Assembly (NCBI GenBank): GCA_019058315.1
Contig: JAHPZH010000002.1
Location: 909,910-973,909 of the forward strand
Source of the DNA: Candidatus Helarchaeota archaeon
GTDB taxonomy: Archaea > Asgardarchaeota > Lokiarchaeia > Helarchaeales > RDOG01
Direction: 5' to 3'
Length of the DNA stretch: 64,000 bases
In this document: positions 523-28,463 of the stretch, one piece after another
Position numbering within the stretch: position 1 is the first letter of the stretch
Layout of the letters: the number at the start of each line of letters is the position of its first letter
Translations under genes and position numbers: made by a program
The notes under the pieces: generated by a model
Told to the model about the DNA's origin: nothing
Seen by the model: only the letters and a program-made list of their open reading frames with translations
Databases searched by the model: none

Positions 523-1419
523 CTAACTAACTTCTAAAAAGTCAGTTATTTTACTTTTCTTCAGACCCTTAGTTTTTGTGCCCCATATCGAATCTAAATC
601 AGGTGTAAATCGATAATATTCTTTATATTTTGATATATCATCGCCTTTTCGTATATTTTTTATTCGTTTTTTAATAATTTCTATGTTCTTTTGACTCTTT
701 TCGATGCCAATACTTCTTCTATTTAATTGCATTGCAACAATATTAGTCGTTCCTGTTCCTGTAAAGGGATCAAAGACTAAATCTCCAACCTTGGTCGAAG
801 ATAAAATAATTCTCAATAGTAAAGCGACCGGTGCTTGTTGTTTATGAAGTCGTTCGTTTGTATTGGGGTGTCTTAAAGCTTCATCACCTGCAAAATAACC
901 TGATGTTAATTCTCTTATATCAATCCATACATCAGTTACATAAAGACCATTTTCTCTTGGCTTTTTTTCATTTGCCATTAATGGAAGATCAATTCTTAAT
1001 CTATTAAAGGTCGCAGGTTTATCTCCTTTTGTGGCAAATCCAATTACTTGAAATTGTTTTCCATATCTATAAGATTGCGGAACAGCAGATGTCTTTTTTC
1101 TCCAAATTATTAAATTTTGAAACGTCCATCCAGAATCTCTTAAGGCTCTTAAAACAAATTCAGCATTTTTTTCTCTTTGCATGAAATATATTGATCCACC
1201 TTCCGAAGTGCAATCATAAATTAATTTACAAATTTCAGTCATCCATTCCCAATATTCCTCCGGGTTCATATCATCCATATGATTTTCATATGCTTTTTGT
1301 TGATTAAAAGGAGGATCTAAAAAACTTAAAGTAATTGGAGATAATTTTTCATCTTTAGAAATTTTAGATTTAAGAATTTCTTTACAATCGTCTTCAAAGA
1401 TAATCGGATCGAATTCCAT
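523..1419 (-). CDS. Site-specific DNA methyltransferase (N4-C/N6-A, beta class)
   Basis: Catalytic DPPF motif N-terminal, SAM-binding DPFTGTGTT C-terminal, HxxQxP motif. Confidence 0.92.
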   Translation of the reverse strand: MEFDPIIFEDDCKEILKSKISKDEKLSPITLSFLDPPFNQQKAYENHMDDMNPEEYWEWMTEICKLIYDCTSEGGSIYFMQREKNAEFVLRALRDSGWTFQNLIIWRKKTSAVPQSYRYGKQFQVIGFATKGDKPATFNRLRIDLPLMANEKKPRENGLYVTDVWIDIRELTSGYFAGDEALRHPNTNERLHKQQAPVALLLRIILSSTKVGDLVFDPFTGTGTTNIVAMQLNRRSIGIEKSQKNIEIIKKRIKNIRKGDDISKYKEYYRFTPDLDSIWGTKTKGLKKSKITDFLEVS

Positions 1420-1530: not shown

Positions 1531-3030
1531 ATGAGAGATTTTGAATTAAGTGAAAATATCATTGATTTAATATTAGATGAATTAAAAAGGGCGGAAAAAT
1601 TTATTAAAATTGCAGTTTTTCAACTCCATAATGAAGAAATTTTTAATATAATTAATGATAAATTGAAAAAAGGGTTAGAAATAGAGATTTTCACACTTCC
1701 TTATGATTCTATTCATCAAAATATAGAGAAAATTCAGAAATTATTTGAAGGGATAATAAAAAATGGAGCAAAAGTATATTTTTGTAAGTGGAATGTAGGG
1801 GATCCAGAAAGAACTACAACCGCTGTAGGAGTTTGGTATTCTTTTCATGGAAAGTTTTTGGTGACAGATAAGATTGCTATTGCCTTTTCAGCAAACTTGA
1901 CCGAAAATAGCGAACTAGACGTTTTAATCTCGTTTAAAAATGAAAAAGATAAAATTGATGAATTTTCCAGAAAATTTGATTATTTGAGAGAATTATTTAT
2001 TGATCCCACTGGTTCATATTCAGGAAAAATTCGGCAAATTGTTACTTCTAAAGAAGTTGAAAATGTTGATGAATTATTTGAGTTGCCTCCCTCTATTAAA
2101 AATGAAGGTTTGACGGATTTTTGGATTCAACATTATCCCTCAGAAATATGTCCAGAAGAAATAGATATTGAAGAAAAGCTATATATTGCACCGTTTGATT
2201 GTAAAGCACGAAATTTTATTACAAAATTATTGAATGAAGCGAAATCTTTTGCTTATATCTGTATTGAAACATTTACTGATTCTGATATCCCTGATGAATT
2301 GAAAAAAATTAGTCTAAAAGGAATTGATATTAGAATAATCTCTGGAAGCGAAAGTATGGATTTCCAAGATAGAATTAATGAAAATTTTAAGGAACTTATT
2401 GCTTCCGATGTCAAAATGAAAACCATTATAGGATACGTTCATGGGAAAATGATTATAACTGATAAACATCTAATGGTTAGTTCTATTAATTTTAATAAAA
2501 TGAATCTTGGATTTGATAAAACAAAAAAATTTTGGAGGGCAAATACAGAAACTCTTCTTGTTTGTTCAGATGAAAAATTAATTGAAAAAGCAAAACAGGA
2601 TTACATAGCTTGTTATGATAAAGGAATTAAAATCGAAAGGAAATTAGCAGAAAAAATTGAAAAGAAAGTAGGAAATATATTTACAACTATTTTTCAACTT
2701 AAAACTAGAAAAGAAGTAAAGGAACTTTTCTCAAGGTTAATTATTGCAAAAGATATCGAAGAAAAGAAATTTATTTTAACAATTGGGAAAATTACAGCAA
2801 AGATTATGAAACATTTTGGAAAAAATATGGTTCAAAAAGAAGATTTTCTATTATCTCTGATATTATTCTATCTTTCAGAAAGAAAACACGACATAGATCA
2901 ACTTAAAGAAAAATTAGAAATTCTAGAAACAGATTTTAATCTGAATAAACTATTAAATATTCTTATAAAAAATGATTTCATAGAGAAAGAGGGAGATCAT
3001 TTTAAATTAAATGTTGGAAAACTATTCTAA
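1531..3030 (+). CDS. Double phospholipase-D (HKD) domain protein with C-terminal winged helix; putative restriction nuclease
   Basis: Two intact HxK(x4)D motifs (FHGKFLVTD, VHGKMIITD); divergent from the methylase. Confidence 0.75.
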   Translation: MRDFELSENIIDLILDELKRAEKFIKIAVFQLHNEEIFNIINDKLKKGLEIEIFTLPYDSIHQNIEKIQKLFEGIIKNGAKVYFCKWNVGDPERTTTAVGVWYSFHGKFLVTDKIAIAFSANLTENSELDVLISFKNEKDKIDEFSRKFDYLRELFIDPTGSYSGKIRQIVTSKEVENVDELFELPPSIKNEGLTDFWIQHYPSEICPEEIDIEEKLYIAPFDCKARNFITKLLNEAKSFAYICIETFTDSDIPDELKKISLKGIDIRIISGSESMDFQDRINENFKELIASDVKMKTIIGYVHGKMIITDKHLMVSSINFNKMNLGFDKTKKFWRANTETLLVCSDEKLIEKAKQDYIACYDKGIKIERKLAEKIEKKVGNIFTTIFQLKTRKEVKELFSRLIIAKDIEEKKFILTIGKITAKIMKHFGKNMVQKEDFLLSLILFYLSERKHDIDQLKEKLEILETDFNLNKLLNILIKNDFIEKEGDHFKLNVGKLF

Positions 3031-3088: not shown

Positions 3089-3871
3089 TTAGGGAAGAAT
3101 TTTATATATTATCAATTTTTTTGATTTTTTTTGAAGATTAAACTCATTCTGTAATTGTTCAACATTCTCTTTTATAATAAAATCAAGGATTTTTATTTTA
3201 AAACCGGGTTCAATCTCGTAGAATTCCATGCAATCCTCTTTTAATATATTTCCAGTATTATTTAATATTTTAATTTGTAAAGACATTCCAAAAAATGTAC
3301 ATTCCCCATAGCAGCAGTTAGGAATAGGGTCTTTATTTTTAAATTTACATTTTTCAATGCAATATAAGTGCAATTCTGAGTTATAATCTTCATTAGGTAA
3401 ATTACACTTTTCTCCACCACTTTCCGGATGACAACTGAGACAATCAGGGTATTCCTCACACGTTCTAAAATCCCAAAAAAGGCTTCCGAAGAATTCTTTT
3501 AATTCTGAAGTTGAATAATCCTTTGGATCGAAAAAATCAAACTCAAACCATAACTCTTCTTTTCTAATTTGTGCAAGATTTTTTAATTCCTCTCTATCAT
3601 AAGTTACTAAAAAATCAATATCTCCGCATTTACTTTCTTTTTCAGCATAACTTCCAAAAATATAAAGTTCCTTTAAGATAGAACCATATTCAGAAGCCAA
3701 TAATCCTTTAAAATTTTTGATAACCTTTTTTTCTAACGGAATAAAAAAATCACGATCAAATTTAATATTTTCACATTCAGGACATTTATGGACTTCTTGT
3801 AATCCTGAATATTTATCTCCTCTTCCGCACCTTTTACATAGTCCAATCTTAGGTATTTTCATCACAACCAT
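3089..3871 (-). CDS. Cys-rich minimal nucleotidyltransferase (MNT/Pol-beta fold) with N-terminal Zn ribbon
   Basis: YIFGSYA...GDIDFLV (GS/DxD); CxxC pairs at the N-terminus and many Cys in the C-half. Confidence 0.75.
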   Translation of the reverse strand: MVVMKIPKIGLCKRCGRGDKYSGLQEVHKCPECENIKFDRDFFIPLEKKVIKNFKGLLASEYGSILKELYIFGSYAEKESKCGDIDFLVTYDREELKNLAQIRKEELWFEFDFFDPKDYSTSELKEFFGSLFWDFRTCEEYPDCLSCHPESGGEKCNLPNEDYNSELHLYCIEKCKFKNKDPIPNCCYGECTFFGMSLQIKILNNTGNILKEDCMEFYEIEPGFKIKILDFIIKENVEQLQNEFNLQKKSKKLIIYKILP

Positions 3872-4247: not shown

Positions 4248-4940
4248 TTATTCTTGATGATAAATTCTATGACACTTTTTACACGTAGGAACACAATTCA
4301 ATGGGTCCAAACATCGTTCAGGATAAACTTTTGGGCTTGCTATATGGTGTACTGTGCTAGCTGGTTTTTCACAATAATGACAAAATCTATTTTCACGTAA
4401 AAATTCAATTCTAAAATCCATCCATAATTTTGACCTATAAAAGTCCTCTGGGAATTCTTTAAGTCCAATTTTTTCACCGTTTTTATAAACTAATTTCTGA
4501 TTTTCATATATCTTACTTTCATTAATACCAATTATTAATTGCAGATCATCCAATATTTCTAAAATATCATCATCATTACGTAAATCTTCATCAGCAGCAA
4601 TCTTTTTTTCTAAATCATTAAGCTCAGATTCTTTCATTTCAGGTATCCCAAGAAGAGAAGTTAAGGCTAATATTTTATAATCAATTAATGGATAATTTTC
4701 AAACGCAAAAATGTAATATTTCTTAGCGACTTCAAATTCCCCAAATTCATTTCCATATAAATCTCCTAAGTCCATTGCAATATGAGGATCTGAAAATTCC
4801 TTAAACCCTTTTTCTAAAAGGTCTTTTGCTTCAGTAAATCTCTCAGAGTTTATTAATTCTCTTGCAGGATAAACATACTTCTCATTAATTTCTCTCCATG
4901 AGGCTTTTCTCCCACTCATAATAATAGAACCACCTTCCAT
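4248..4940 (-). CDS. TPR-like N-terminus plus C-terminal HNH endonuclease
   Basis: CHYC...TVHHI...NCVPTCKKCHRIYH. Confidence 0.8.
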   Translation of the reverse strand: MEGGSIIMSGRKASWREINEKYVYPARELINSERFTEAKDLLEKGFKEFSDPHIAMDLGDLYGNEFGEFEVAKKYYIFAFENYPLIDYKILALTSLLGIPEMKESELNDLEKKIAADEDLRNDDDILEILDDLQLIIGINESKIYENQKLVYKNGEKIGLKEFPEDFYRSKLWMDFRIEFLRENRFCHYCEKPASTVHHIASPKVYPERCLDPLNCVPTCKKCHRIYHQE

Positions 4941-4944
4941 AATT

Positions 4945-5460
4945 TTAACTTGGAATGATATTATAAATCCAAGTTATGATATTGAGAACTTTTTTAAATA
5001 TTATAATAGAATCTTCGGAAGAGAACCGTTTTTGGCCGTGCATTGCATCATTTCTAAGTTCTCGCAACTCATCTAATTGGTCTAAGAAATTTGAAGGATA
5101 ATTTACATTTTCTAGTTCATCGATACATTCTCCAATATTTCTTAAATCTTTATTGATTTTTAAATCTGCGTTAATATGAGTTTTTAATTCATTTTCAAAA
5201 ATTCTTGCACTCATTAAAACCGAAGCTGTCCATAAATTGCATGCAAGACATCGCAAATTTTCATTTATATCTTTTTTTAAAAAATTCGTCATATTTTCAA
5301 TTAATATTTCTGGAAAAAAATTCTGTATTTTTGATTTTTTTGATTTAATATCTGAATGATTTAAGTTATTAATATTTGAAATAATCATTTGAAGACAATT
5401 ATCACAATAATATACTCTTAAATAAATAGGATTTGAACAATTCTGGCAATAATTTAGCAT
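4945..5460 (-). CDS. HEPN/DUF4145-like protein with N-terminal Zn finger
   Basis: RNDAMH (Rx4H); 'ASVLMSARIFE' helix; two CxxC at the N-terminus. Confidence 0.7.
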   Translation of the reverse strand: MLNYCQNCSNPIYLRVYYCDNCLQMIISNINNLNHSDIKSKKSKIQNFFPEILIENMTNFLKKDINENLRCLACNLWTASVLMSARIFENELKTHINADLKINKDLRNIGECIDELENVNYPSNFLDQLDELRELRNDAMHGQKRFSSEDSIIIFKKVLNIITWIYNIIPS

Positions 5461-5549
5461 TTTATCCCCCCGAAACCTTTATTTTTACCAGTTTTGTCTA
5501 TATATAACTGGATTTTTGAAGTGGCTTTTTTAGTCATCTTTTTACCCAA
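5454..5549 (-). CDS. Small 31-aa ORF (MGKKMTKKATSKIQLYIDKTGKNKGFGGIKC), not in the ORF track
   Basis: TTG start preceded by GGAGGT; fills the gap in the operon and overlaps the next start. Confidence 0.4.
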   Translation of the reverse strand: MGKKMTKKATSKIQLYIDKTGKNKGFGGIKC

Positions 5550-5565
5550 AATTTTTACCTCCAAA

Positions 5566-6489
5566 TCATTCCTTTACTCGTTTTTTAAAAATACACTCAT
5601 AACCTTCTGGTTTTAATTTATCGGGTTGTATTGAAGTTATTCCAAAATAAGATTGGTTATATTTTGAATACCAATTGAATCTGGGGTAAGATCTCTCACT
5701 AGGAAAATCTTTTTCTCTTATTGTTACTAATTCCCATCCGTTTTCTCCAAAATAATTTAAAATATCAACAAGCTCCAAAGAAGCAATTTCATCCTCGTTA
5801 TTTCCCTCATATAAATAATTCCAACCATCACCTTCTAAATCATCAAATTCATAATAAATTAAAAAATCATATAATGAATTGGGATCTAAACTTTTTTGTA
5901 CATAATCAACGATGAAATAATTAGGTTCCCCCTTCGAATTTTTTTCATAATCAATTCTTTTAATAATATTTACTTTTTTATATTTCCAAACTTCCGGAAT
6001 CTCACTTTTAGTTTTCTTTTTTGCTTTTCCCTTCTTTGAAGGAAGTTTAATTTTTCCCTTATTACAGTTATTACAAATTGAAATATAATTTAAATAATTT
6101 AATGGATTTCTAGAATTGGGATTAATTTGCCTTATATTCAGTTTATCTTGTGGAAATGTTTTTTTACAAAACTGACATTGATTATTATCCTTGAAAAATA
6201 TAATTTCTTTAATTTTAGGTTTTAATACCATTGTTTTTGGGCGTTTTTTAATAATTTGGAAATAATCATTCTCATATCTAATAATCCGTTGAGTTATTGC
6301 GTTTTGATCAATTTTTAGTTCATCTGCAATATCAGATATTGTTAGTGATTGAAAATTTTTTCTTATAAATACATAGATAATTTCTTTTATTGATTTTGGA
6401 ATCTTTTTTACATTAGACATTTTTATTCTATTATTTGTAAGATAGAACACTCTTATATATCTTTTGTTATTTTGTACATGACATTTCAC
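5566..6489 (-). CDS. HTH + degenerate HNH + DUF4177-like domain protein
   Basis: 'LTISDIADEL' HTH; CQFC...NYISICNNCN with the first His missing; 'LNYFGENGWELV' motif. Confidence 0.6.
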   Translation of the reverse strand: MKCHVQNNKRYIRVFYLTNNRIKMSNVKKIPKSIKEIIYVFIRKNFQSLTISDIADELKIDQNAITQRIIRYENDYFQIIKKRPKTMVLKPKIKEIIFFKDNNQCQFCKKTFPQDKLNIRQINPNSRNPLNYLNYISICNNCNKGKIKLPSKKGKAKKKTKSEIPEVWKYKKVNIIKRIDYEKNSKGEPNYFIVDYVQKSLDPNSLYDFLIYYEFDDLEGDGWNYLYEGNNEDEIASLELVDILNYFGENGWELVTIREKDFPSERSYPRFNWYSKYNQSYFGITSIQPDKLKPEGYECIFKKRVKE

Positions 6490-7051: not shown

Positions 7052-10000
7052 TTGAATATTTGTGTGATAATTATGGAAAAAACAACAAGATATTGGAAAA
7101 ACAGATATAAAGTTATCAAAGAAATAAAAATTTCGGGATCTATTCCTTTTAATGAAAAAATTGAAATTCGGCAATTTATATGTGAAGATCTACTATTAAA
7201 ACAAGAAGTTATACTTAAAAAAATTAAAATAAATGAAAACGAAGAACTTAAGGAATTAGCAAGATTCTTATGGCATTATGAAATGTCATTGAATCAAAAG
7301 GCCATAAATAATTCAGATGGCAAAACATTATTGAAATTAATAGATTCGCAATATGATCCTATAGAAAATTATTTCATTATCGTAACTGATTTTGGGGGGA
7401 TTTCTTTGAAGGAATGTTTAACTCAAACCGAACAAACTGATGATAGCATATCTTTTCAAAATTTTTTATCAGGAAAGAAAAGAAAATGGGATTCGATCCT
7501 TAAGTTAGTAGAAGGCTTATCATCATTACATAATTCTGGATTAATTCACCGAAATATATCTTTAGAAACAATTTACTTTAATAGTAATTCTTATAGAGAA
7601 GGGGAAAAGGAAGTATTAAAAATTGGGGATTTTAATTGGAGTATTTATTTGTATTCAATTGCAAATATATTCTCTAATAAGTTTTCAATTGAAATAATCC
7701 AATGTAAAAATGATTTCTTTCGAGCACCTGAATGTAATACTGATATTGTATTAAAAAATCCAGTACCTCGTGGTGAAAATAATCAATCAGATCTTTTTTC
7801 GCTGGGACTTGTTTTAGCTTTTTTATTAACTGATTTGGACATAAACAAATACAAAATATCTGAAAATTCAGACAAAATTCAAATTCTTTTAGAGATTCGA
7901 GATTATATTAAGAATTATAAAAGATTTTTAGAACAAGAGAGAGAAATAATATTAAAATTGATCGAAATAGAACCGGAGAAAAGGTTCTTAAATGCTGAGA
8001 AATTAAAAGAGAATATTAAAAACTTTTTAAGAGAATTAAAATACAAATTTAGCTACTATAAAGAATTACCTATATACTTTCCCTTAAGTAGACAGAGTAG
8101 ATTATTAGAAATAATTTCAAATAGAATGAATATAGGTATTGATGCTATTATTCGGGATCCAGATGAATTTTTAAGAATTGAATTTTCTAATACAACATTT
8201 TACTTATCAAAAGATCAACAATTTCCATTATGGGTCAAAGGAAAAACTGGAACTGTATATAAAATTAGGAGTATTTATAGAAGACCCAAATTAGCAGAAC
8301 TTTTCATAGTAAGATGGAAAGAATATGATTTTGAAAAAACAGACATTCAAATATGCAATACAAAAAATCTTTTTTGGAGAGATAAAGATAGTAATGATCC
8401 AATCTATTTAGGTTGGGAAAAAATATTCGCAACATCCTTGGATCTAATTAACGAGAAAGTTGCGGAATTATCTGAGGGGGATAAAGATAAAGAAAGATGG
8501 CTCGAAACTATAGAAATTGTCACTGATGCTGAAATAGATTTAGAAGAGAAAAAAATATTTGATTATCAATTAATCAGTTCAGAGCAGGAAAAAAAGTTAG
8601 AAGAAGAATACAAAATAAAAATTGCTATTTCAAATTTAGCTGATGAGGAATTATTTTCTGATCCGAGTGGAGATTTCAGAGGAACTAGCTTGGAATTAGT
8701 TTTAGAAAGAAATATTTTTGAACCATTTAAAGAAAAGAGAAAATGGAAAATAAGTAGTAGTGAATATGATGAAAATATAGATACAACAGTTTTTACATTG
8801 GTTAGAACAAAAAAGGGGGAAGATCCTCCATTAAATGGATTTATAAGAATGTGGGAATTAAAAAATACAGCTCCACTTCTTAGAAGAAAATATGGAATTA
8901 TTCAAAATTTAGAAAAACACGAATTACTTTTAAATTCGATTTTAAAACCAGCCTCAACTCATAAATACTTCGAAAGGGATATTATTAAAAAAGAAATCGT
9001 AACGGATATATTCAATACATTTCCGATTTTTTTATTACAAGGTCCTCCTGGCACAGGAAAAACTTGGACTGCAAAAGAATTAATAAAAGTAACTTTAGAA
9101 AATGATCCTTATGCTAAAATTCTTGTTACAAGTAAAGAGCATTTCCCACTGGATGATTTATTGACAAAAACATTAAAAATGATTCAAGATCTAGAAATAA
9201 AACCCAAACCAATGCTAATCAGGCTTATTTCAACTGAACGAGAGCAATTTTATGATCCAAAATCATTAATTTTTTTACATTTTAATAAAATAATTGCTAA
9301 AAATCTTCTAGAAAAACTTATAAAATGGGTTCCCAAAAATCCCAAGTTAAATGAGTTAGGAAAAGAATTAAATAAAATTGCTAGGGAAGATTTTGAATCG
9401 CCCAGTAGAGAATGGATAGAATTAGTAAAACAGAGTTCTAATATCCTCTTTTGTACTACCACTGCTCGAGAACTTCAAGAACTCGAATATTTTCATCCTT
9501 CATTTGATTTGGTAATTATTGAGGAATCTGGAAAGGCATATCCATCAGAATTATTATTTCCATTACAATTGGGAAATAAATGGGTTTTGATTGGAGATCA
9601 AAATCAATTACCTCCTTTTAGAGTTGATGATATAAACGAAATTCTTGAAGAGCGATTGGAAAAAAAGGAAAATGAGGTAAAAGGTTTACCTAATTATAGT
9701 TCTCAAGATTTTCTCGAATTTAAACAAGATGTTAAAAAAGAAATGAAGATTTTTCAATCTATGTTTGACCGATTTCAGAAGGTTAATCATTCCTTTAATA
9801 AAGCTGATCAAATAAAGTCTTGTGATACACTAATAAATCAATATCGCTTACCTTCAAAAATAAGTAGAATGATTTCTACAATTTTTTATAATAAAGAATT
9901 TATTCAGAAAATCAAAGATCCAGAACTAGGAAGTTTCATTATTGAACCCGAAATTTTAAAAGATGAACAATTGATATGGATTAATACATCTTATAAAAAA

Positions 10001-10495
10001 GAATATAAAGAGCAAAGAAGCGGTTATGATATATATAATATTGGAGAGGCACTTTTAATTAAAGATTTATTAACAAAAATACAAATATCGGAAAATAATG
10101 GGAATTTTTCAATTGCGATATTGACTCCCTATAAAGAACAACTTCAAACCCTCATCAAAACACTTCCAAATCAATTAAATAATCTGAAAAATATTAAAAT
10201 TCGTGAAAGTTGTTATACTATCGATAGCTTTCAAGGTCGAGAAGCAGATTTAGTAATTATATCTTTAGTTAGGAATAATCGAAAAGAAAGTTCTAGACGC
10301 GCTTGGGGTTTTATACCTGGACCAGAGAGATTAAATGTGATGCTTTCAAGGGCAAGAAGAACTGAAATTATTGTTGGAAATTTCGATATGTGCCGAACTT
10401 TCCACCGAGATGACTATATGACGAAATTTAATAAAGTAGCAAAATTTGTAAAAAATTATGGTAAATTGTTAACTCCAAAGGAGGTGCTAGAATAA
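7052..10495 (+). CDS. Ser/Thr kinase-like domain fused to UPF1/DNA2-like SF1 helicase (MkoA-like); likely start ATG 7073
   Basis: Kinase: HRN, DFN, APE, SDLFSLG. Helicase: GPPGTGKT, IEESGKA, IGDQNQLPP, QYRL, TPYKEQ, TIDSFQGREAD, RLNVMLSRAR. Confidence 0.88.
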   Translation: MNICVIIMEKTTRYWKNRYKVIKEIKISGSIPFNEKIEIRQFICEDLLLKQEVILKKIKINENEELKELARFLWHYEMSLNQKAINNSDGKTLLKLIDSQYDPIENYFIIVTDFGGISLKECLTQTEQTDDSISFQNFLSGKKRKWDSILKLVEGLSSLHNSGLIHRNISLETIYFNSNSYREGEKEVLKIGDFNWSIYLYSIANIFSNKFSIEIIQCKNDFFRAPECNTDIVLKNPVPRGENNQSDLFSLGLVLAFLLTDLDINKYKISENSDKIQILLEIRDYIKNYKRFLEQEREIILKLIEIEPEKRFLNAEKLKENIKNFLRELKYKFSYYKELPIYFPLSRQSRLLEIISNRMNIGIDAIIRDPDEFLRIEFSNTTFYLSKDQQFPLWVKGKTGTVYKIRSIYRRPKLAELFIVRWKEYDFEKTDIQICNTKNLFWRDKDSNDPIYLGWEKIFATSLDLINEKVAELSEGDKDKERWLETIEIVTDAEIDLEEKKIFDYQLISSEQEKKLEEEYKIKIAISNLADEELFSDPSGDFRGTSLELVLERNIFEPFKEKRKWKISSSEYDENIDTTVFTLVRTKKGEDPPLNGFIRMWELKNTAPLLRRKYGIIQNLEKHELLLNSILKPASTHKYFERDIIKKEIVTDIFNTFPIFLLQGPPGTGKTWTAKELIKVTLENDPYAKILVTSKEHFPLDDLLTKTLKMIQDLEIKPKPMLIRLISTEREQFYDPKSLIFLHFNKIIAKNLLEKLIKWVPKNPKLNELGKELNKIAREDFESPSREWIELVKQSSNILFCTTTARELQELEYFHPSFDLVIIEESGKAYPSELLFPLQLGNKWVLIGDQNQLPPFRVDDINEILEERLEKKENEVKGLPNYSSQDFLEFKQDVKKEMKIFQSMFDRFQKVNHSFNKADQIKSCDTLINQYRLPSKISRMISTIFYNKEFIQKIKDPELGSFIIEPEILKDEQLIWINTSYKKEYKEQRSGYDIYNIGEALLIKDLLTKIQISENNGNFSIAILTPYKEQLQTLIKTLPNQLNNLKNIKIRESCYTIDSFQGREADLVIISLVRNNRKESSRRAWGFIPGPERLNVMLSRARRTEIIVGNFDMCRTFHRDDYMTKFNKVAKFVKNYGKLLTPKEVLE

Positions 10496-10496
10496 A

Positions 10497-12596
10497 ATGT
10501 TTCAAATTAATGAGGAAGGATATAAAAAAGATTTTCTCACTATACCAATCGAAATGATTAAATGTGAGATACATATTAAAAAACTGGCAAAACTAACTAC
10601 ATTTGAGAAACTAACTTTAAAATTTATTTATGAAGAAAATTCTCTTCAAGAATTACTAAATGCATTTAATGCTGGAACTCACATTATGAATTTCATTATT
10701 GCAAAACTTTTTTATCAAGGATTAATTAGGCTCAAATTAAATGAAGGTATCGTTGAATTAAGTGATAAAATTATTGATTATGTAAAAAACAATAAGTTAG
10801 ATGAATACTCAGAGGAAGAGAAATCTTATAAAAAAAGAAATTTTACGTTTATCCAGGAAAAAATAAGTGGCGAGCTATTTTTAGAAAATCGTGTAAAAGA
10901 ATATTTAATAAAACCACATTCCCCAAAGGATACCAATTATTATGATGTTAAAGCCAACATATATGGTAGTTTTCCAAATCTAAGAGATTTCTCAATAACA
11001 AAATTTGCAAAACGGGCAATTGTGGAATTAAAATCAGACATAGAAGATATAGAAAAAATTGAATTTATTAAAAATTTAAACCTTAATAAATTTTATATTC
11101 CCCTTGTCGATAAGACCAATAAAAAATTATTAAAATTGGATTATGATTTTTTTCCAAGCCATATTCAAAAAGCTTGGCAAAATGCCTTTGAATCTCAGCA
11201 TTTTAAAAGTGGAGAAGAACAAATAAATTTAGAGCTATTAAAAGATGAAACTAAGTTCTTCTCCATTAAGACCATTAAAGAGGAACTCTTTAAAGCTTTA
11301 GATTCTTTAAAAGAGCTATTTATAAGAATTAATGTTAAACAAGATAAAACTGAATTATTATTTCAGTCTGATATTATTTTAGATAAGATTTCAAATTTAA
11401 TAGAGAAAACTATTGAATTGACTAAAAGTATAAACCAAATTCAATTTAATTATGAAAAATCTAATATCTTCATTGAAAATTTTAAATCTTTTATAATTAA
11501 AGCCAAAAAACTTGTTATCATATCTTCTACTGAAATTAATGTGAGCAGTATTCCTATCTTAAGTTCTGTTATAAATGATCTTATTAAGAATAAAGTGCAT
11601 GTAATTCTTCAATGGGGATTGTTAGAAAATCAAAGATATCCTGATTTAGCACGTAAATTAGAGATATTTGAAAAAGAAATAAGAAAGATGATAGATAATG
11701 ACTTTCAAAAATATCTTCATATCTATCATACTACTACCAGAACTAATTCAAATTATATTTTAATTGATTATGATAAATTAATCTACTCTAATTTTTCATT
11801 TCTTAATTGGAATAAAGCACTTGACACAATTATTACATTTGTAGAAATTGAAGGTGGTGAAATGCCTTTAAATTTTTTAGAATTTAGTATTGATTACTCA
11901 CCCCCTGAATTTACACAAAGGTCTTTTTTAAATAAACTTCTTTTAGAGGGAAATGCATCTCTTTTAAAGAAATTATCTAGCCAAAGACAGAAGTTCATTC
12001 TAAATCTAAAAGAAAAATTCGAAAAATTAAAGAACCTTATTGAAAGCGGCAGTTTTAATAATGAAGAAAATGAAATTAATAATTTAAAATCAATTATTGG
12101 ATCAGGAATTAACTTTGATAGTGTTTCAAAAATAATAGATTTAGAACACGAAGAAATTCTTATTGATATTATGGAATCAACAAAAAATTCTATCTTTCTA
12201 TATACGGATGAATTAAATATCCTTCCATTTGGTCCTCATTTTGAAGAAAACATAGAAAAGTTCACAAATAGTGAATTTAGTATTATTTTAAATAAATACT
12301 TTTTAAAATCTGAAAATGAAACAAAATGGGCAAAAGGAATTAAAAGAATTGAATATATCTCAAATAAATTTCCTCAATTAAAACTTATAGAATTAGAGCA
12401 AAATTTCAAACTAAATATAGTTTTAGTTGATAATGGTTTAATTTTTTATTCAAATTCTCGCATTTTAGCACCTAGAAGAAGGATTGATTATGATTTCAAT
12501 ACTAAGAATTTTGGTTTGATAATTGATTCTGCTAGTGTCAATAAAGAAATTCTAAAATGCTTAAATACATTTCATGTTTTAAATTCTAAAAAATAA
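10497..12596 (+). CDS. Winged helix + two degenerate PLD-like domains (MkoB-like)
   Basis: PLD-fold patterns 'AKKLVIISS...VHVILQWG...TNSNYILID..LIYSNFSFL' and 'KLNIVLVD..LIFYSN' without HxK; starts 1 bp after the helicase stop. Confidence 0.62.
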   Translation: MFQINEEGYKKDFLTIPIEMIKCEIHIKKLAKLTTFEKLTLKFIYEENSLQELLNAFNAGTHIMNFIIAKLFYQGLIRLKLNEGIVELSDKIIDYVKNNKLDEYSEEEKSYKKRNFTFIQEKISGELFLENRVKEYLIKPHSPKDTNYYDVKANIYGSFPNLRDFSITKFAKRAIVELKSDIEDIEKIEFIKNLNLNKFYIPLVDKTNKKLLKLDYDFFPSHIQKAWQNAFESQHFKSGEEQINLELLKDETKFFSIKTIKEELFKALDSLKELFIRINVKQDKTELLFQSDIILDKISNLIEKTIELTKSINQIQFNYEKSNIFIENFKSFIIKAKKLVIISSTEINVSSIPILSSVINDLIKNKVHVILQWGLLENQRYPDLARKLEIFEKEIRKMIDNDFQKYLHIYHTTTRTNSNYILIDYDKLIYSNFSFLNWNKALDTIITFVEIEGGEMPLNFLEFSIDYSPPEFTQRSFLNKLLLEGNASLLKKLSSQRQKFILNLKEKFEKLKNLIESGSFNNEENEINNLKSIIGSGINFDSVSKIIDLEHEEILIDIMESTKNSIFLYTDELNILPFGPHFEENIEKFTNSEFSIILNKYFLKSENETKWAKGIKRIEYISNKFPQLKLIELEQNFKLNIVLVDNGLIFYSNSRILAPRRRIDYDFNTKNFGLIIDSASVNKEILKCLNTFHVLNSKK

Positions 12597-12619: not shown

Positions 12620-15040
12620 TTGAAAATACAGAAGGATTATATTCTATTTTCAAATTTTATCAAAATAACGAATATTACTAATAAGCAAAATAATTTGGAT
12701 GGAGGAATAAAAATAAACTTAAAAAAAATTGAAATTAAGAATTTTATGGGCGTTCATGACGTAACCTTAGATAATTTAGGTATTTTTAATGTAATAATTG
12801 GAAAAAACAAAACAGGAAAATCATCTATCTTAAAATTATTAGCTAATTATAAAGTAAATGATAATTTTTGGGTGGCAAACAAAAAGTTTGCCTCTGAAAA
12901 AGGAGAAAATAAACCAATTGAATTATTAAAATTAATATGGGAATTAGATTCAGAAGATATAATACAACTTAAGAAAGTTTCTTCTAGTTTAAAAAATGCT
13001 AAACTTTCATCAACTAATCTAATTATGGTAACAGAACATAAACCCCTAAATAATCATTCTGCAAAATTTTATTCAGATCAAAATTTATCAAAACTTTCGT
13101 ATGAACTACCAAGTGTAGCTCAGACTATGTTCCAAAATACAATATTGGGGGGTAAAATTATAAATATGATTCCATGTGTAAGATATTTATCTACGGATTT
13201 TGAAAAACGAATTACAGAAATCGAATTGGTTAGTAATAAGCAAGATCCTGAATTTATTTTCTATACAAATCAAGATGTAATGGTTTTCGATCAAATATTT
13301 AATTGGATTGATATAAAAAACCGAAAAAGAGAAGAAATTCAAGAATTCATTAATATTATAAGGAAATTAATTAATGTTGATTTAGAAATTAATGAATTTG
13401 AAGCAGGAAACGATTTTCAACTCTCATTAGATTATGAAGAATTAGGTCTTAAATTTGAGAGAGCTTTCCGAACCGCTGGACATGCAACACAACAATTAGT
13501 TTTAATTTTATATTATTGTTTCTTTCAAAAAAATCATTTAATTCTTATTGATGAAATTGAAATAGGACTTCATCCAAGTCTTTTGAGGTATTTATATAAT
13601 GTACTTTATGAATTATCAGAAAGAAATAATAATCAATTAATTGTATCAACCCATTCGTCTGTCTTTCTTGATTTATGTCCAAATGTTTACTTATTAGAAA
13701 ATGCTGAAAATGGTTCAATCTCCTATAATCACTCGGACTTTATTACAATCAGAGCAATTGATGAATTAATAGACCCTGATCCTATTGATTCTGCATTTAT
13801 TTTATCAAGAGATGAATATTCACTATTAATACAATCAGGATTTGATGAATTAAATTTAAATATGATAAATAAAATCCATGATTATTTTAAGCCATTTGAA
13901 TTATTTTTAGAACACGAAGAAGGTCTTGATGAATATAAAAAGATATTAAAACTTGGAACTACTATAAAACATTATAATTCTCAACTTCTTCAAAATGTAC
14001 ATTTTTTAAGCTCTACCGTTGAAGAAATATCGCTAAATTATGATGATAAATTAAAAAATAAACTAAAGAAAATTGTAATTTGTCAAATAAACAAAATTAA
14101 GGTTGATAAAACATATAAGAATCGAGAGGAACAATTTAAGAATTTATGTAAAGAATGTTGGAACCCAAAATTCCAGAATATTTTAACATATTCTCCGATG
14201 AAAGCAGAGGAAAAAAGGATTGAGATAATTGAACATTTGAAAAAATTGAAGAAATATAATAAAATTAACAATATTAATCAAAATTCTATCATTATAGTCT
14301 TTCCCGAAAATAGCTTTCCTTATATTGCTTTAGAAAATCTCATTAAATTTGCCACAAATGAAAAAGTTATAATTGTTGGAGGAATGGAACATAAGAAAAT
14401 CGGTCAAATCAAGAAAATTTTTTCGAAATTACCTCATGAATATCAAAAAAGATTAATTATTCCAAATTATAATCAATATTTTAAAAAATTATTAAAAAAA
14501 ATAGGTAATAAAGATACTAATCCATTTGATCCTCTACAAGAACGAGATTTGGAAGTAATTACTAATTCTAAATTTTTAAATCAAGCTATAATTATAAATT
14601 CTGATAAAAGAATTTCATTTCAAATTAAGAATATTCCAGTATATTTCTTTAATAAAGAAAAAAATAGATATGATAAAGAAGGTATTCCTTCAATATTAAT
14701 ACCTCATTTTAAAAAATTTAAAACAGTAATTGGTAATTTAGCTATTCTAATATGTAAAGATTTTTTAGTTAATTATGAAATAATCCCTCAATGGATGGAA
14801 AAAAATGATATCAACATTATTATTATCCCTTCTTTTACTCAATTAGTAAAACCATTTCAAGATAAAATTGGAGAAATTATGAGAAATAAAAAAAATGAAG
14901 GAAAAATATTTGTATTCGCAAGTTTAGCCGAATATGGTGGATCTGGAGTCTATTGCTACAAAAAAAGGAAAGATTATGAACCTGGAAAAAAAGGAAATCT
15001 CGAACCTGGGGAAGAAAAATGCAAAGAATATATAATATAA
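12620..15040 (+). CDS. ABC-type (AAA_15/AAA_21-like) ATPase fused to a C-terminal nitrilase/carbon-nitrogen hydrolase domain
   Basis: GKNKTGKS, LIDEIEIGLHP, STHS; nitrilase triad VFPE / QIKN / ILICKDF. Confidence 0.8.
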   Translation: MKIQKDYILFSNFIKITNITNKQNNLDGGIKINLKKIEIKNFMGVHDVTLDNLGIFNVIIGKNKTGKSSILKLLANYKVNDNFWVANKKFASEKGENKPIELLKLIWELDSEDIIQLKKVSSSLKNAKLSSTNLIMVTEHKPLNNHSAKFYSDQNLSKLSYELPSVAQTMFQNTILGGKIINMIPCVRYLSTDFEKRITEIELVSNKQDPEFIFYTNQDVMVFDQIFNWIDIKNRKREEIQEFINIIRKLINVDLEINEFEAGNDFQLSLDYEELGLKFERAFRTAGHATQQLVLILYYCFFQKNHLILIDEIEIGLHPSLLRYLYNVLYELSERNNNQLIVSTHSSVFLDLCPNVYLLENAENGSISYNHSDFITIRAIDELIDPDPIDSAFILSRDEYSLLIQSGFDELNLNMINKIHDYFKPFELFLEHEEGLDEYKKILKLGTTIKHYNSQLLQNVHFLSSTVEEISLNYDDKLKNKLKKIVICQINKIKVDKTYKNREEQFKNLCKECWNPKFQNILTYSPMKAEEKRIEIIEHLKKLKKYNKINNINQNSIIIVFPENSFPYIALENLIKFATNEKVIIVGGMEHKKIGQIKKIFSKLPHEYQKRLIIPNYNQYFKKLLKKIGNKDTNPFDPLQERDLEVITNSKFLNQAIIINSDKRISFQIKNIPVYFFNKEKNRYDKEGIPSILIPHFKKFKTVIGNLAILICKDFLVNYEIIPQWMEKNDINIIIIPSFTQLVKPFQDKIGEIMRNKKNEGKIFVFASLAEYGGSGVYCYKKRKDYEPGKKGNLEPGEEKCKEYII

Positions 15041-15463: not shown

Positions 15464-16480
15464 GTGATTAAGTGGATGGGAATGGAACCTAAAATATTAC
15501 AGAAAATCGAGAAATATGGAAGATATTCGGAAACTTTTCCCCTTAAAAAAGGTCCGGTAGGACCAGTTGAAGTGAAAGGTGTAAGGGGACAACAAATAAA
15601 AATTTATCTGACTTCTGATGGAATAGAAATTTATGATAAGAATAATGTATTAGAAAAGAGTATTTTTTATGACGAAATTGACGCATGTATAAACCTTAAT
15701 GTTGCCGAGCATTTAAAGATTCCAAAGAGTACCTTGACTTTTTCTGCCTATAAAGTGGAAACAATTTTATTACATTATTCAAATAACAAAAAATTATATC
15801 TACTATTTTGGAGTACTATTGCTGGTTGGCAACCTAAGCGACATGCAAAAGTCTTTAATAAAATACAAGAACACATAAATCGTCCGAATATAAAGGACTT
15901 TTTGATTGCTCTAGCTCCAAAATATGACGATTTTAAAATCCCAATTTCTCGAATTCAAGAAGAGTATCCTCTTGATGTTAATGAGATCCGCCATATAGTT
16001 GAGGAAATTACGGATTCGAATTTTAAATTCAAACAATCCAAAGATTATATTCTAGTGAAACCCAAACCTAAAATCGAAGTTGAAAGAGTAAGTATAAATG
16101 GAGAAGAAAAATTTAATGTAGTAGATAAAATAGAAATACCTCTTGAATTTCATATAACAAACCGAGGCACTTATCCGGCAAGAATTTCTCTACATCTTGA
16201 TGCTGCAAATTTACCAACGGGAAAACCTCATCCTCCATTTGATATTAAGCCAGGAGAAACCGCAATAAAGACCTTTCATGTTTCCACATTTGTAAAAGAC
16301 AATGAATATACAATGAATTTATTGCTGTGTGATAACAACGATGATAATGTTGAAATTGAAGATTCGGGAGTTACTTTTACAATAAATAGAAAAACATCAA
16401 AGAAAATGAAATTAAAAAATATTCTAAAAGCAGCTCTTTATCAATCCGCAAATGTGTTAGGAATCGCAAGGAAAATATAA
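15464..16480 (+). CDS. Hypothetical: PH-like domain, helical linker, Ig-like domain, basic amphipathic C-terminal helix
   Basis: 'KIYLTSDGIEIY...SIFYDEI' PH-like pattern; 'ITNRGT...IKPGET' Ig-like pattern. Confidence 0.5.
   Translation: MIKWMGMEPKILQKIEKYGRYSETFPLKKGPVGPVEVKGVRGQQIKIYLTSDGIEIYDKNNVLEKSIFYDEIDACINLNVAEHLKIPKSTLTFSAYKVETILLHYSNNKKLYLLFWSTIAGWQPKRHAKVFNKIQEHINRPNIKDFLIALAPKYDDFKIPISRIQEEYPLDVNEIRHIVEEITDSNFKFKQSKDYILVKPKPKIEVERVSINGEEKFNVVDKIEIPLEFHITNRGTYPARISLHLDAANLPTGKPHPPFDIKPGETAIKTFHVSTFVKDNEYTMNLLLCDNNDDNVEIEDSGVTFTINRKTSKKMKLKNILKAALYQSANVLGIARKI
16382..16480 (+). repeat. Direct repeat copy 1 (3' end of 15464..16480)
   Basis: 16382-16431 identical to 16710-16759, then diverged. 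Confidence 0.9.
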
Positions 16481-17898: not shown

Positions 17899-19179
17899 AT
17901 GCAAAGAACCAAATTTATTTTATTAATATTTTCTCAAATACTCTTAGTATCTTCGGTGTTTTTTAGTGTTTTAGACGCCCCAAATCCTAGTTGCTTAATC
18001 TCAGCACCCAATTTAGCCGAAATCCCCAGAAATCTTGTAATCGCAACTCCCAGTTATGTAAATAGATGGTCGACTACATATTCCCCGGACAATATCGATA
18101 TTTCAGCAGATGGACGATATTTTGTAACAGGCGACTCAGCCCCCGCCCCTACTAATCTTACCTTTTACGATAGAAACGGTCCTAGGTGGGCCCACATTCC
18201 AGGGGATGCTATCCTTGATGTAGCAATTTCTGCAAATGGGCAATATATAGTAACTGGAACCCAGATAAAAAATGTAACTCTTTATAACCGAGCAGGATTT
18301 CGGGATGATTATATTCCTAGTGATGGTATTATATCAGTTGCAATATCAGCTGACGGGCTTTACTTCGTTGCTGGAGATATACCTGGTCGCGTTCTTATGT
18401 TTAATAGATCTAATCCTCAAGCTAATGGAATTAATAACATGTGGAATTATACTACTGGTGACGGTAGTATTGGCGCACTTGCTATTTCATCAGACGGTCA
18501 ATGCATTGCTGCTGGTGGCTGGAATCAAAATATAACTCTACTTAATCGAGATTCTACAGTAATTCAGGAAATCGAAACTGGAGCGGTTCGATCATTGGCG
18601 ATGTCCGCTGATGGGACTTATATTGTCTCCGGAAATTCAAGCGGTTATGTATCCTTATTTAACAACACGGGTAGTTTGTTAGTGGGCTATGATATGGGGG
18701 AAGAAGTTCGAGAAGCGGCAATTTCGGCAGATGGTCAATATTTCGCTGTAGGAGGAATTAATGACCATGTCATGATGTTTAGACGAAATGGATCAATAGT
18801 CTGGGATTACGATACTGGATTTAACGTTTATTCGGTCGCAATGTCAGCAAATGGGCAATATGTAGTTTCGGGTGATGGAAATTCCAACGTAACACTATTT
18901 AATCAAACTGGATTTATGTGGAACTATACAACTGGGGGTTCAGTTAATAGTGTAGCAATTTCGGCAGATGGGCAATATTTTGTAGCTGGATCAGGTGACA
19001 ATTACGCCTATCTGTTTAAAAATCCATTACCAAGTGACGAAGACCAGAATCAACTAATTCTACTACTATTGGCTCAAGCGGGAACTGGAGATCAGTCAAT
19101 ATTCATGTTTGCGATAATCGGAATCGGTGCAGTGTCAGCAGTGATAATAATAATTCTACTGGTTAAAAAACAAGAGTAA
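17899..19179 (+). CDS. Secreted WD40/PQQ-like beta-propeller with C-terminal membrane anchor
   Basis: About 8 'VAISADGQYFVAG' repeats; signal peptide; TM + KKQE tail. Confidence 0.88.
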   Translation: MQRTKFILLIFSQILLVSSVFFSVLDAPNPSCLISAPNLAEIPRNLVIATPSYVNRWSTTYSPDNIDISADGRYFVTGDSAPAPTNLTFYDRNGPRWAHIPGDAILDVAISANGQYIVTGTQIKNVTLYNRAGFRDDYIPSDGIISVAISADGLYFVAGDIPGRVLMFNRSNPQANGINNMWNYTTGDGSIGALAISSDGQCIAAGGWNQNITLLNRDSTVIQEIETGAVRSLAMSADGTYIVSGNSSGYVSLFNNTGSLLVGYDMGEEVREAAISADGQYFAVGGINDHVMMFRRNGSIVWDYDTGFNVYSVAMSANGQYVVSGDGNSNVTLFNQTGFMWNYTTGGSVNSVAISADGQYFVAGSGDNYAYLFKNPLPSDEDQNQLILLLLAQAGTGDQSIFMFAIIGIGAVSAVIIIILLVKKQE

Positions 19180-26420: not shown

Positions 26421-28463
26421 TTGGAATCAGAGGAAGATGTAAAACTTTTCATAAGTGAAGAAGAAGAGCTACTTCAAAAATTAGAGGACAATCTCTTCAA
26501 TTTAGAAGAAAATCCAGAGGATAAAAATCCGGTTCAAGATCTTTTCTACATTTTTCACACATTAAAAGGTATTAATGCAATGGCAGGCTTCGTAAATGTT
26601 TCAGAATTCTGCCATCATTTTGAATCTATTTTAGATAGTGCAAAAAATAAGGAAATTTCAGCAGAAAATTTGACTACTTTTCAAAACTTATTTTTTCAAT
26701 GCTTAGATAACCTTAGAAAACATCTTAGGCAAATTAAGGAGGGTGACATGACAGATCTTAACTCTGAGATTGTCAAAGAGATAAAAGAAAAAAAAATTAC
26801 CTTTAAAAAACAAGATAAAAAACAAGAAAGCAGTGAAACATTTCTAAAACCTATTACTATTGAAAAAATTCACCAATTAGTAAAGGATATAAAAAACAAA
26901 TTCTTTGAAATTCAAATTCGTCTTCAAGAAAGTTGTCCTTTTAGAAAAGCCAGATTGATGATTATTATAAGAGAATTAAATGAAGTCGGTCTTTTTTGCT
27001 GGAGTAATCCTTCCCCTGAAATACTAGATTCGGGTGAGATTCCACTAGAATTTATACTTTTTTACATATCTACAAAAAAAATTAATAATTTTAAACAAGT
27101 CCTGAATAAAGTTTCAGAAATTGAAAAAAAGTATATTTCAGAACTGGAATCGAATGATTTCCTGAATACCGTTAAAATGCTTATTGAAAATCGAAAAAAA
27201 GAAGAATTAATTAAAGATATTGATAGCTCGGAACATGATAACATAAATATTGACAGTATTAAAGTAGATGTTGATGTTTTAGAGAAGTTAATGAATAATT
27301 TCGGGGAGATAGTTATAATTAGAAATCAAATTAACCAATTATTAATGGAAGGATTAGATAGTTCAGTTAATGACCTTATAAAAAATATGGATAAACCTTT
27401 ACTTGATATTCAAGACTTAATCTTAAAATTGAACCTGATTAAGGTAGAAACGACTTTTAAAAAATATCGAGGTTTGATTCGGGATCTATCAAAAGAAACA
27501 GGTAAAAAAATTAAATTTTCATTAGAGGGCACAGATGTAAAATTAGATAGAAAAGTTTTAGAGGAATTAAACGTTCCAATTATTCATTTATTAAGAAATG
27601 CAATATACCATGGTATAGAACCGCAAGAGGAAAGAAAAAGGAAGCATAAAGAAGAGTTAGGTAAAATAAAACTTAAGGCATATAGAGGAGCTGACTCAGT
27701 ATTTATTGAAGTATCAGATGATGGAAAGGGGATTGACTTTGATTCTATACGACAAAAAATAATTGATAAAGGATACTATTCGAAGAAAGATGCAAAGGAA
27801 TTAAGTGAAGATATTTTAAAAAAGTTTATTTTAATGCCTGATTTTTCTACACTTTCAGAAGTAGATATCATCTCAGGTAGAGGAATGGGATTAAAAATTG
27901 TGAACGATATAATCAAAGGTTTAGGTGGTTCTTTGAGAATACATTCAGAAAAGGATGTTGGAACTACCTTTACATTAATAGTACCATTTACAAAGGCTAT
28001 ATTTAGGGCACAATTAATAACTGTGGCTGATGATCTATTTGCTATTCCTCTTGAACGTATTGAACAAATCTATTCTTTTAATATTAACTCAATAGAATCT
28101 GATAATCAAGTTAAATATTATAAAATAGATGCCCAAAAAAAAGTACCTCTTATCTTTTTAGATCACTATTTAAAACTTAGAAATCATGAAAATAAATCAA
28201 ATTTTAATAAAAATATTAAGATCGGAATTTTATGTCATATGGATGAAAAACATTCCGCAATCCTTGCTTTAGATGAGGTTCTTGAACAAACTGACGTTAT
28301 AGTTAAACCTTTTAAATCGGATTATTCAGATTCTGACGATTTTCTAGGTTCTGCAATCACCGGAGATGGTTCAATTTGTTTAATACTAAATGTTTCAAAT
28401 ATTATTTCATCTACTTTGAAAGAAACTCAATCTGAAACAGAAATTATAGAATTAAATAAATAA
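26421..28463 (+). CDS. cheA: Chemotaxis histidine kinase CheA
   Basis: Hpt FHTLKG; HLLRNAIYHGIE; DDGKGID; SGRGMGL; C-terminal CheW domain. Confidence 0.96.
   Translation: MESEEDVKLFISEEEELLQKLEDNLFNLEENPEDKNPVQDLFYIFHTLKGINAMAGFVNVSEFCHHFESILDSAKNKEISAENLTTFQNLFFQCLDNLRKHLRQIKEGDMTDLNSEIVKEIKEKKITFKKQDKKQESSETFLKPITIEKIHQLVKDIKNKFFEIQIRLQESCPFRKARLMIIIRELNEVGLFCWSNPSPEILDSGEIPLEFILFYISTKKINNFKQVLNKVSEIEKKYISELESNDFLNTVKMLIENRKKEELIKDIDSSEHDNINIDSIKVDVDVLEKLMNNFGEIVIIRNQINQLLMEGLDSSVNDLIKNMDKPLLDIQDLILKLNLIKVETTFKKYRGLIRDLSKETGKKIKFSLEGTDVKLDRKVLEELNVPIIHLLRNAIYHGIEPQEERKRKHKEELGKIKLKAYRGADSVFIEVSDDGKGIDFDSIRQKIIDKGYYSKKDAKELSEDILKKFILMPDFSTLSEVDIISGRGMGLKIVNDIIKGLGGSLRIHSEKDVGTTFTLIVPFTKAIFRAQLITVADDLFAIPLERIEQIYSFNINSIESDNQVKYYKIDAQKKVPLIFLDHYLKLRNHENKSNFNKNIKIGILCHMDEKHSAILALDEVLEQTDVIVKPFKSDYSDSDDFLGSAITGDGSICLILNVSNIISSTLKETQSETEIIELNK

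Follow-up and report, generated by a model that had tools for sequence, protein, structure and literature searches.

A predicted single-chain fusion of an OLD/PARIS/Septu-type ATPase and a nitrilase-type amidase in a defence island of a Helarchaeota archaeon

OLD, GajA of Gabija, AriA of PARIS, PtuA of Septu and of retrons, and AbiLi are ATPases of one family with common motifs, and systems of the OLD/PARIS/Septu type share a logic in which such an ATPase is coupled to a toxic effector. The effectors are nucleases, supplied in cis or by a partner gene (TOPRIM, DUF4435/AriB, HNH/PtuB). Nitrilases are uncommon in antiphage defence (PMC13275509). They occur in DRT1 and other class 3 UG/Abi reverse transcriptases (RTs; UG1, UG5, UG29), where a nitrilase-superfamily domain with conserved catalytic residues forms the C-terminus of a large defence protein; these class-3 nitrilases constitute a clade of their own (PMC9226505). 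In DRT1, oligomeric assembly both enables and restrains the nitrilase, whose substrate is an open question (PMC13275509). Here we analyse a gene from Candidatus Helarchaeota archaeon that joins an ATPase of the former kind to a nitrilase related to the latter. The gene lies in a stretch of 64,000 nucleotides, which we call the window (NCBI GenBank assembly GCA_019058315.1, contig JAHPZH010000002.1, positions 909,910 to 973,909 of the forward strand). Our literature searches returned no description of an AAA_15/OLD-type ATPase fused to a CN-hydrolase, and nitrilases go unmentioned in the surveys of Asgard and archaeal defence that we consulted. Both the ATPase-plus-effector defence module and the nitrilase effector are of known kinds, while their combination is new in the literature searched.

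The open reading frame (ORF) proposed by a first-pass annotation, made from the DNA letters alone, proved exact on the plus strand, and every motif quoted for it lies where it had been placed: in the ATPase half GKNKTGKS (residues 61-68), LILIDEIEIGLHP around D311/E312, and STHS (343-346); in the nitrilase half VFPEN with E563, FQIKN with K670, and ICKDF with C712 (Table 1). Because the low G+C content of the surrounding DNA (about 25%) makes stop codons frequent, a frame of this length is not a product of chance. The TTG start is plausible, since residues 1-33, although modelled with low confidence, can be aligned with the segment that precedes the ATPase in long homologues. The identical protein of 806 amino acids (aa) is also recorded in the protein collection (P0003). 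As judged from its sequence, the gene is one intact single-chain fusion of an OLD/PARIS/Septu-type ATPase and a nitrilase-type amidase with intact catalytic residues. We consider it most likely to be a new single-gene immune module because of the type of its ATPase, the kinship of its nitrilase with those of defence RTs, and its setting in an island of virus-defence genes. Specifically, the gene would encode an autonomous conflict or defence protein in which the ATPase gates a nitrilase effector, a reading to which we assign a probability of roughly 0.55.

Table 1. Positions, in window coordinates, of the fusion gene, its domains and motifs, and the genes upstream of it.
Feature	Positions	Strand	Basis or remark
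Whole gene: ABC ATPase - linker - nitrilase fusion	12620..15040	+	806 aa, TTG start, stop codon included; ORF list, translation
ABC-type ATPase domain (AAA_15/AAA_21), residues 34-351	12719..13672	+	Pfam, PADLOC, PDB sequence matches, Foldseek
Walker A GKNKTGKS (K67)	12800..12823	+	Sequence; G61, N63, G66 and K67 nearly invariant in 38 homologues
ABC signature-like motif RTAGHATQQ	13469..13495	+	Alignment; precedes Walker B; GSGTQELL in most relatives
Walker B HLILIDEI (D311, E312)	13535..13558	+	D311 and E312 invariant in 38 homologues
H-loop region VSTHSS (H345)	13643..13660	+	T344 and S346 nearly invariant; His position H, Q or N among homologues
Linker, residues 352-479	13673..14056	+	Last part (~440 onward, LGT...LLQNVHFL) conserved in every architecture
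Nitrilase-superfamily (CN-hydrolase) domain, residues ~480-806	14057..15037	+	AlphaFold2 (AF2), Foldseek, VIA-align, hhalign
Catalytic Glu563 (VFPEN)	14306..14308	+	Invariant in 50 sequences; aligned to PE Glu of canonical enzymes
Catalytic Lys670 (FQIKN)	14627..14629	+	At least 90% conserved; aligned to canonical invariant Lys
Glu687, candidate second catalytic Glu	14678..14680	+	Invariant; aligned with vanin-1 Glu
Catalytic Cys712 (ICKDF)	14753..14755	+	Invariant; aligned to catalytic Cys of canonical enzymes, vanin-1 and RT-fused nitrilases
AEYGGSG motif	14927..14947	+	E771, G774 and S775 invariant or nearly so; aligns with YGGS of RT-fused nitrilases
N6/N4 DNA methylase	523-1419	-	
PLD nuclease	1531-3030	+	
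Nucleotidyltransferase (MNT)	3089-3871	-	
HNH	4248-4940	-	
HEPN	4945-5460	-	
HNH_5	5566-6489	-	
MkoA	7052-10495	same as fusion	PADLOC E 1.9e-169
MkoB-like protein	10497-12596	same as fusion	PADLOC E 5.7e-21

The N-terminal half had been called an ATPase of the OLD/PARIS-AriA type, and this assignment is upheld. Both Pfam models exceed their cut-offs (AAA_15, E 8.3e-19, 68.9 bits against 32.1; AAA_21, E 8.3e-17, 62.6 bits against 27), and the Walker A, signature, Walker B and H-loop motifs are all present, as in other ABC ATPases of the OLD/AbiL/AriA/PtuA type. Across 38 homologues the Walker A span G61-S68 is nearly invariant, and H318 and P319 after Walker B are as constant as the acidic pair itself. 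The best PADLOC models for this half are AbiLi (1e-22) and AriA (5e-22), followed by PDC-M38A, Old, NsnB, HEC-01A, PtuA, MAD3 and GajA. By sequence, the only relatives of solved structure are an OLD-family nuclease (6p74, 5.9e-10) and PARIS AriA (8ux9/8v45, about 2.5e-9). In Foldseek comparisons of the AlphaFold model of the whole protein, the N-terminal half was best matched by PtuA in retron I-A and Septu complexes, retron Eco8, OLD, Rad50 and RecN. The nearest solved relatives, OLD, AriA and PtuA/retron I-A, are all associated with nucleases, in agreement with the first-pass remark that such ATPases usually pair with one. In contrast to those systems, no nuclease domain that could serve as the cognate partner of a PARIS, OLD, Gabija or Septu ATPase was found by Pfam or PADLOC in the 806-aa protein, whose effector would instead be the nitrilase. 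The HNH and HEPN genes nearby (4248-6489) are encoded on the other strand, on the far side of the Mokosh pair described below. A further difference is that most homologues of the fusion carry an additional N-terminal region of about 570 aa or LRR/Roc modules.

For the C-terminal half, the Pfam model PF00795 alone stays below its threshold (E 1.4e-3, 18.4 bits against a cut-off of 23.2), but the structural and profile methods agree on a nitrilase with an intact Glu-Lys-Cys triad, as the first-pass annotation had proposed. An AF2 model of residues 451-806, built from an alignment of 50 homologues, reached a mean confidence score (pLDDT) of 89.6 and a predicted template-modelling score (pTM) of 0.90. 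Its top Foldseek matches in the PDB all belong to the nitrilase superfamily (vanin-1, beta-ureidopropionase, NitFhit, AmiF, carbamoylase, Nit2 and Lnt). With VIA-align, the model superposed on Bacillus cereus formamidase (5g3o) over 218 residues at a root-mean-square deviation of 2.7 A and a Z score of 19.9; 50 further nitrilase-family entries were listed at Z of at least 18, all across model residues ~29-356. The three structural approaches (AF2, VIA-align and Foldseek) thus give the domain the four-layer alpha-beta-beta-alpha sandwich of the superfamily. Its true start lies near residue 480, where KIVICQIN forms the first strand.

The catalytic residues could be placed by hhalign. An alignment of 13 domain-only sequences matched the genome's own four canonical CN-hydrolases (probability 95.3%, E 2.2e-8), with E563, K670 and C712 superposed on the canonical PE Glu, invariant Lys and invariant Cys. 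Also invariant or nearly so throughout the family are E590, N654, Q668, E687, D714, W725 and AEYGGS; the catalytic Cys is absent from one of the 13 genome-derived sequences (L019). E687, 17 residues past Lys670 and beyond a family-specific insertion, aligns with a Glu of vanin-1 and may be the second catalytic Glu, although hhalign against the canonical set places this loop differently. A PDB profile search with the full-length alignment was dominated by LRR matches; repeated with the domain-only alignment, it returned vanin-1 pantetheinase alone (E 5e-4). The clade is a divergent member of the nitrilase superfamily rather than a set of typical PF00795 sequences. The linker, most of which is modelled with confidence in the full-length protein, ends in a helix-strand element that accompanies the nitrilase module from about residue 440 in all architectures; G446 is invariant and T447, N459 and L463 are nearly so, with the same columns kept in relatives that carry only LRRs.

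The first-pass annotation had drawn a comparison with the nitrilases of DRT1-type RTs, which turns out to be more than an analogy. When the C-terminal domain was isolated, it matched a single PADLOC model, that of the nitrilase associated with DRT RTs (RTasNitrilase, PDLC03804; E 2.7e-7, 27.9 bits, partial coverage). A 655-aa LRR-nitrilase paralogue in the same genome and a 1275-aa relative also match this model. Over the entire genome, PDLC03804 found three genes: besides the fusion and its LRR paralogue, it recognised one for a 462-aa protein that lies at an edge of contig 1, but none of the four canonical CN-hydrolases. Profile-profile comparison agrees with this result: small alignments of the Asgard clade and of three RT-fused nitrilases matched at a probability of 97.5% (E 5.4e-12), compared with 95.3% (E 2.2e-8) for the Asgard clade against canonical enzymes and 78.4% (E 1.7e-5) for canonical enzymes against RT-fused nitrilases. 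By profile comparison, then, the Asgard clade is nearer to the RT-fused nitrilases than to housekeeping CN-hydrolases, and the two are likely to form a common "defence nitrilase" clade. They are homologous and share the YGGS motif, yet across the 169 columns that align only about 20% of the residues are identical. The fusion differs from DRT1 in other respects as well. No RT domain was found by Pfam or PADLOC in the protein or its immediate neighbours, and protein-primed DNA synthesis is likewise missing; control would be exerted by an ABC ATPase; and the host is an archaeon of the Promethearchaeota rather than a bacterium.

The 462-aa protein of the same genome (L112:91-1479, minus strand, in the first 1.5 kilobases (kb) of contig 1) scores 96.5 bits on the RTasNitrilase model, and the AEYGGSG motif aligns with it too. 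In tblastn searches it matched the C-termini of "reverse transcriptase domain-containing proteins" of about 1170-1235 aa from bacterial plasmids, a layout that corresponds to the class-3 UG/Abi (DRT1-like) architecture (PMC9226505). No RT was visible within the 2.8 kb around this gene, which lies at a contig edge.

To what extent the nitrilase module recurs can be seen from a domain-only profile, which was run with HMMER against 1.84 billion representative proteins. It retrieved 587 proteins at E<=1e-3, of which 64 also reached E<=1e-30, and the match was nearly always C-terminal, in proteins of 500-1600 aa. Since the millions of ordinary CN-hydrolases were not retrieved, the clade is small and divergent. 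An AAA_15/21 ATPase is present in 39 of 61 close relatives; four of the 39 also have LRRs and one has Roc/Ras, and about 21 are ~1330 aa long and begin with ~570 aa that carry no annotation. The remaining 22 of the 61 combine LRRs and nitrilase without an ATPase. More distant relatives bear TPR, HEAT or LRR arrays. The minimal form, ATPase plus nitrilase, is found in the 806-aa protein and likewise in P0005 and P0040. A search of the ESM Atlas gave only plain AAA_15/21 clusters, with scores below 0.9 and no fused architecture.

Several variants of the family are worth recording. The ~570-aa N-terminal region of the 1330-aa homologues (L037:9932-11650 and L038:12670-14375), which is missing from the 806-aa protein, is conserved and has no Pfam match. 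Promethearchaeota archaeon CR_4 has a split form (L040:5493-7576, minus strand), a stand-alone nitrilase of 326 aa whose start lies within the last part of a 368-aa ORF upstream; the latter showed no Pfam or PADLOC match and no BLAST similarity to the ATPase. A family of about 1275-1290 aa (for instance L041:8339-12166, plus strand) joins a C-terminal CN_hydrolase domain (PF00795, 38 bits) to a region of about 1000 aa without Pfam matches, and recurs in many Promethearchaeota genomes, sometimes in multiple copies.

Judged by source names and genome titles, all strong matches come from Promethearchaeota (Lokiarchaeota); the close relatives include Odinarchaeota, and the distant ones Thor- and Heimdallarchaeota. 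A strong match (E<1e-30) was present in only seven of the 400 genomes searched within the phylum, and none was found in the one genome of the same family or the five of the same order that were searched. This patchy distribution is the pattern of an accessory gene. The organism's own genome (5.8 Mb, 12 contigs) holds one paralogue, the LRR-nitrilase mentioned above, on contig 3; it scores 24.2 bits against PF00795 in the genome search and 22.3 bits in hmmscan.

How such a protein might work can be outlined from its parts. ABC heads sandwich ATP as dimers, and enzymes of the nitrilase superfamily have to assemble into dimers or larger oligomers to be active. For these two reasons, and because the DRT1 nitrilase is controlled by its assembly (PMC13275509), we propose an oligomeric switch. 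The OLD/AbiL/AriA/PtuA-type ATPase would act as a nucleotide-dependent switch and possibly as a sensor, and the C-terminal amidase with its Glu-Lys-Cys centre as the effector. On detection of a trigger, by the ATPase itself or by way of it, the protein would shift its oligomeric state and open the amidase site, allowing an amide (C-N) bond to be hydrolysed in an essential small molecule or protein, with arrest of the infected cell or the invader as the outcome. The first-pass annotation had likewise proposed an ATPase sensor, with an effector that would deplete a metabolite or nucleotide. As a hint to the substrate, the match to the pantetheinase vanin-1 is weak and only a lead. Nothing in the domain, motif or profile results points specifically to base deamination.

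The fusion gene is set in a low-G+C stretch of defence genes, and ordinary metabolic genes begin near 20.9 kb. The defence-island setting suggested by the first-pass annotation is thus borne out for this window, where a methylase, a PLD nuclease, an MNT, two HNH genes flanking a HEPN gene, MkoA and MkoB lie upstream. MkoA and MkoB, which make up Mokosh type I, are immediately adjacent, on the same strand, and only 23 base pairs (bp) separate the MkoB stop from the TTG of the fusion. The pair (7052-12596) looks catalytically degenerate: where HRD and DFG would be expected, the MkoA kinase has HRN and DFN, and no HxK(x)4D motif is present in the MkoB-like protein, whose C-terminal NFKLNIVLVD...YSNS resembles a PLD motif minus the His. 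The linkage is not conserved in either direction. Five further MkoA-MkoB loci from Asgard archaea, including two whose MkoA is 48-49% identical, have no ATPase-nitrilase nearby, and neither MkoA nor MkoB stands beside any of the four closest homologues of the fusion. We considered the fusion as a third conserved Mokosh gene and set this aside, as its co-occurrence with MkoAB is not conserved. We likewise rejected the ~570-aa N-terminal extension of the 1330-aa homologues as an equivalent of MkoB, since BLASTP found no similarity between it and the upstream MkoB-like gene.

Other loci offer a mixed picture. An all-against-all BLAST of the neighbours of the four homologue loci and the window revealed no shared partner gene. 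The 338-aa ORF downstream of the fusion (15464-16480) had no relatives at the four homologue loci and no Pfam, PADLOC or NCBIfam match. The LRR-nitrilase paralogue (L042:9958-11925, minus strand, at about 840 kb of contig 3) is located between a 765-aa type II/IIG-like methyltransferase and a 953-aa AriA/LmuB-like ATPase, and this may be a second defence locus. Another relative adjoins a giant protein that contains an endonuclease. Two WD40 proteins, 45% identical to each other (17899-19179 in the window and L042:16-1344), lie within a few kb of the fusion and of the LRR-nitrilase paralogue, respectively; many WD40 genes occur in Asgard genomes, and the pairing may be due to chance. Just past the island is a CheA-type histidine kinase (26421-28463; Hpt, P2, H-kinase_dim, HATPase_c, CheW); the organism therefore carries chemotaxis genes.

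Other explanations of the fusion have to be weighed against an immune function. LRR, Roc-GTPase, TPR and HEAT proteins are greatly expanded in Asgard archaea, and Nta1-type amidases of the nitrilase superfamily carry out N-terminal or side-chain deamidation. The fusion could accordingly be a non-immune regulatory or signalling protein, whose nitrilase output, under control of the ATPase, processes an endogenous signal or modifies a protein. Its module is indeed shared with LRR, Roc/Ras, TPR and HEAT partners, clear defence neighbours are not seen at the homologue loci, and the ~1275-aa relatives are common in two genera (some match in 25 of 54 and 6 of 42 genomes), commoner than a typical single defence gene. 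We nevertheless regard this explanation as unlikely, given an ATPase specifically of the OLD/AbiL/AriA/PtuA defence group, a nitrilase closest to those of defence RTs, the location within a dense defence island and the very patchy close clade. A number of observations do weigh against an immune role. Because LRR, Roc, TPR and HEAT modules are abundant in Asgard signalling, the shuffling of partners is by itself no proof of immunity. The neighbours at the four closest homologue loci are mostly unannotated, mutually unrelated and seldom matched by PADLOC, so that the association with defence depends mainly on the one island described here and is only suggestive beyond the window. In tblastn searches with the nitrilase domain, collections of phages and plasmids yielded no homologue. 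The profile-profile comparisons rest on alignments of only 3-13 sequences, and the helical insertion in the N-lobe of the ATPase (residues ~78-234) is poorly modelled (pLDDT <50).

The close apposition to MkoB suggests another role, that of a third gene supplying the effector of the adjacent Mokosh-like operon and so compensating for the degenerate MkoB and MkoA. The shared strand, the short gap and the altered motifs of both proteins would fit such a role; we find it improbable, however, because neither the Asgard Mokosh loci nor the closest ATPase-nitrilase loci repeat the arrangement, and because the fusion has an NTPase switch of its own and relatives that occur with quite different partners. 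It is very improbable that a housekeeping metabolic amidase (pantetheinase-like, amidase or carbamoylase) became fused to an ATPase by happenstance. The domain shares its fold and triad with metabolic enzymes of the nitrilase superfamily and vanin-1 is the sole match in the PDB at the level of sequence, but the genome already encodes four canonical CN-hydrolases, the close clade is confined to few genomes of the phylum and absent from those searched of its own family and order, and its nitrilase domain falls below the Pfam CN_hydrolase threshold and is nearly always embedded in long multidomain proteins.

An ATPase-gated defence protein remains our preferred explanation, and the architectures of its relatives invite comparison with NLR-like/STAND and ROCO-type immune or signalling proteins, which combine a repeat sensor, an NTPase switch and an effector. 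The organisation is similarly modular here, with one effector domain recombined with LRR, TPR, HEAT, Roc GTPase and ATPase modules. Unlike in STAND proteins, the NTPase here is ABC/SMC-like, and the 25 Pfam families that occur most often in the distant relatives include neither NACHT nor NB-ARC.

In conclusion, the fusion would represent a second, architecturally unrelated carrier of a DRT1-related nitrilase, one in which the enzyme and a simple ATP switch share a single chain of 806 aa. As such it would be a compact system for identifying the substrate and for studying oligomerisation as a general on-switch, and it would extend the theme of OLD/PARIS/Septu ATPases from nucleases to a non-nuclease effector. 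More tentatively, and with less confidence than we attach to the single gene, Promethearchaeota might possess lineage-specific NLR-like immune receptors, in which one nitrilase homologous to the DRT1 effector serves as a common death or defence output for sensors and switches that can replace one another (ABC ATPase, LRR, Roc GTPase, TPR and HEAT). If that were true, bacterial and archaeal immunity would have an ancient amide-containing target in common, and the 806-aa protein would be the minimal, ATP-switched form of the repertoire.

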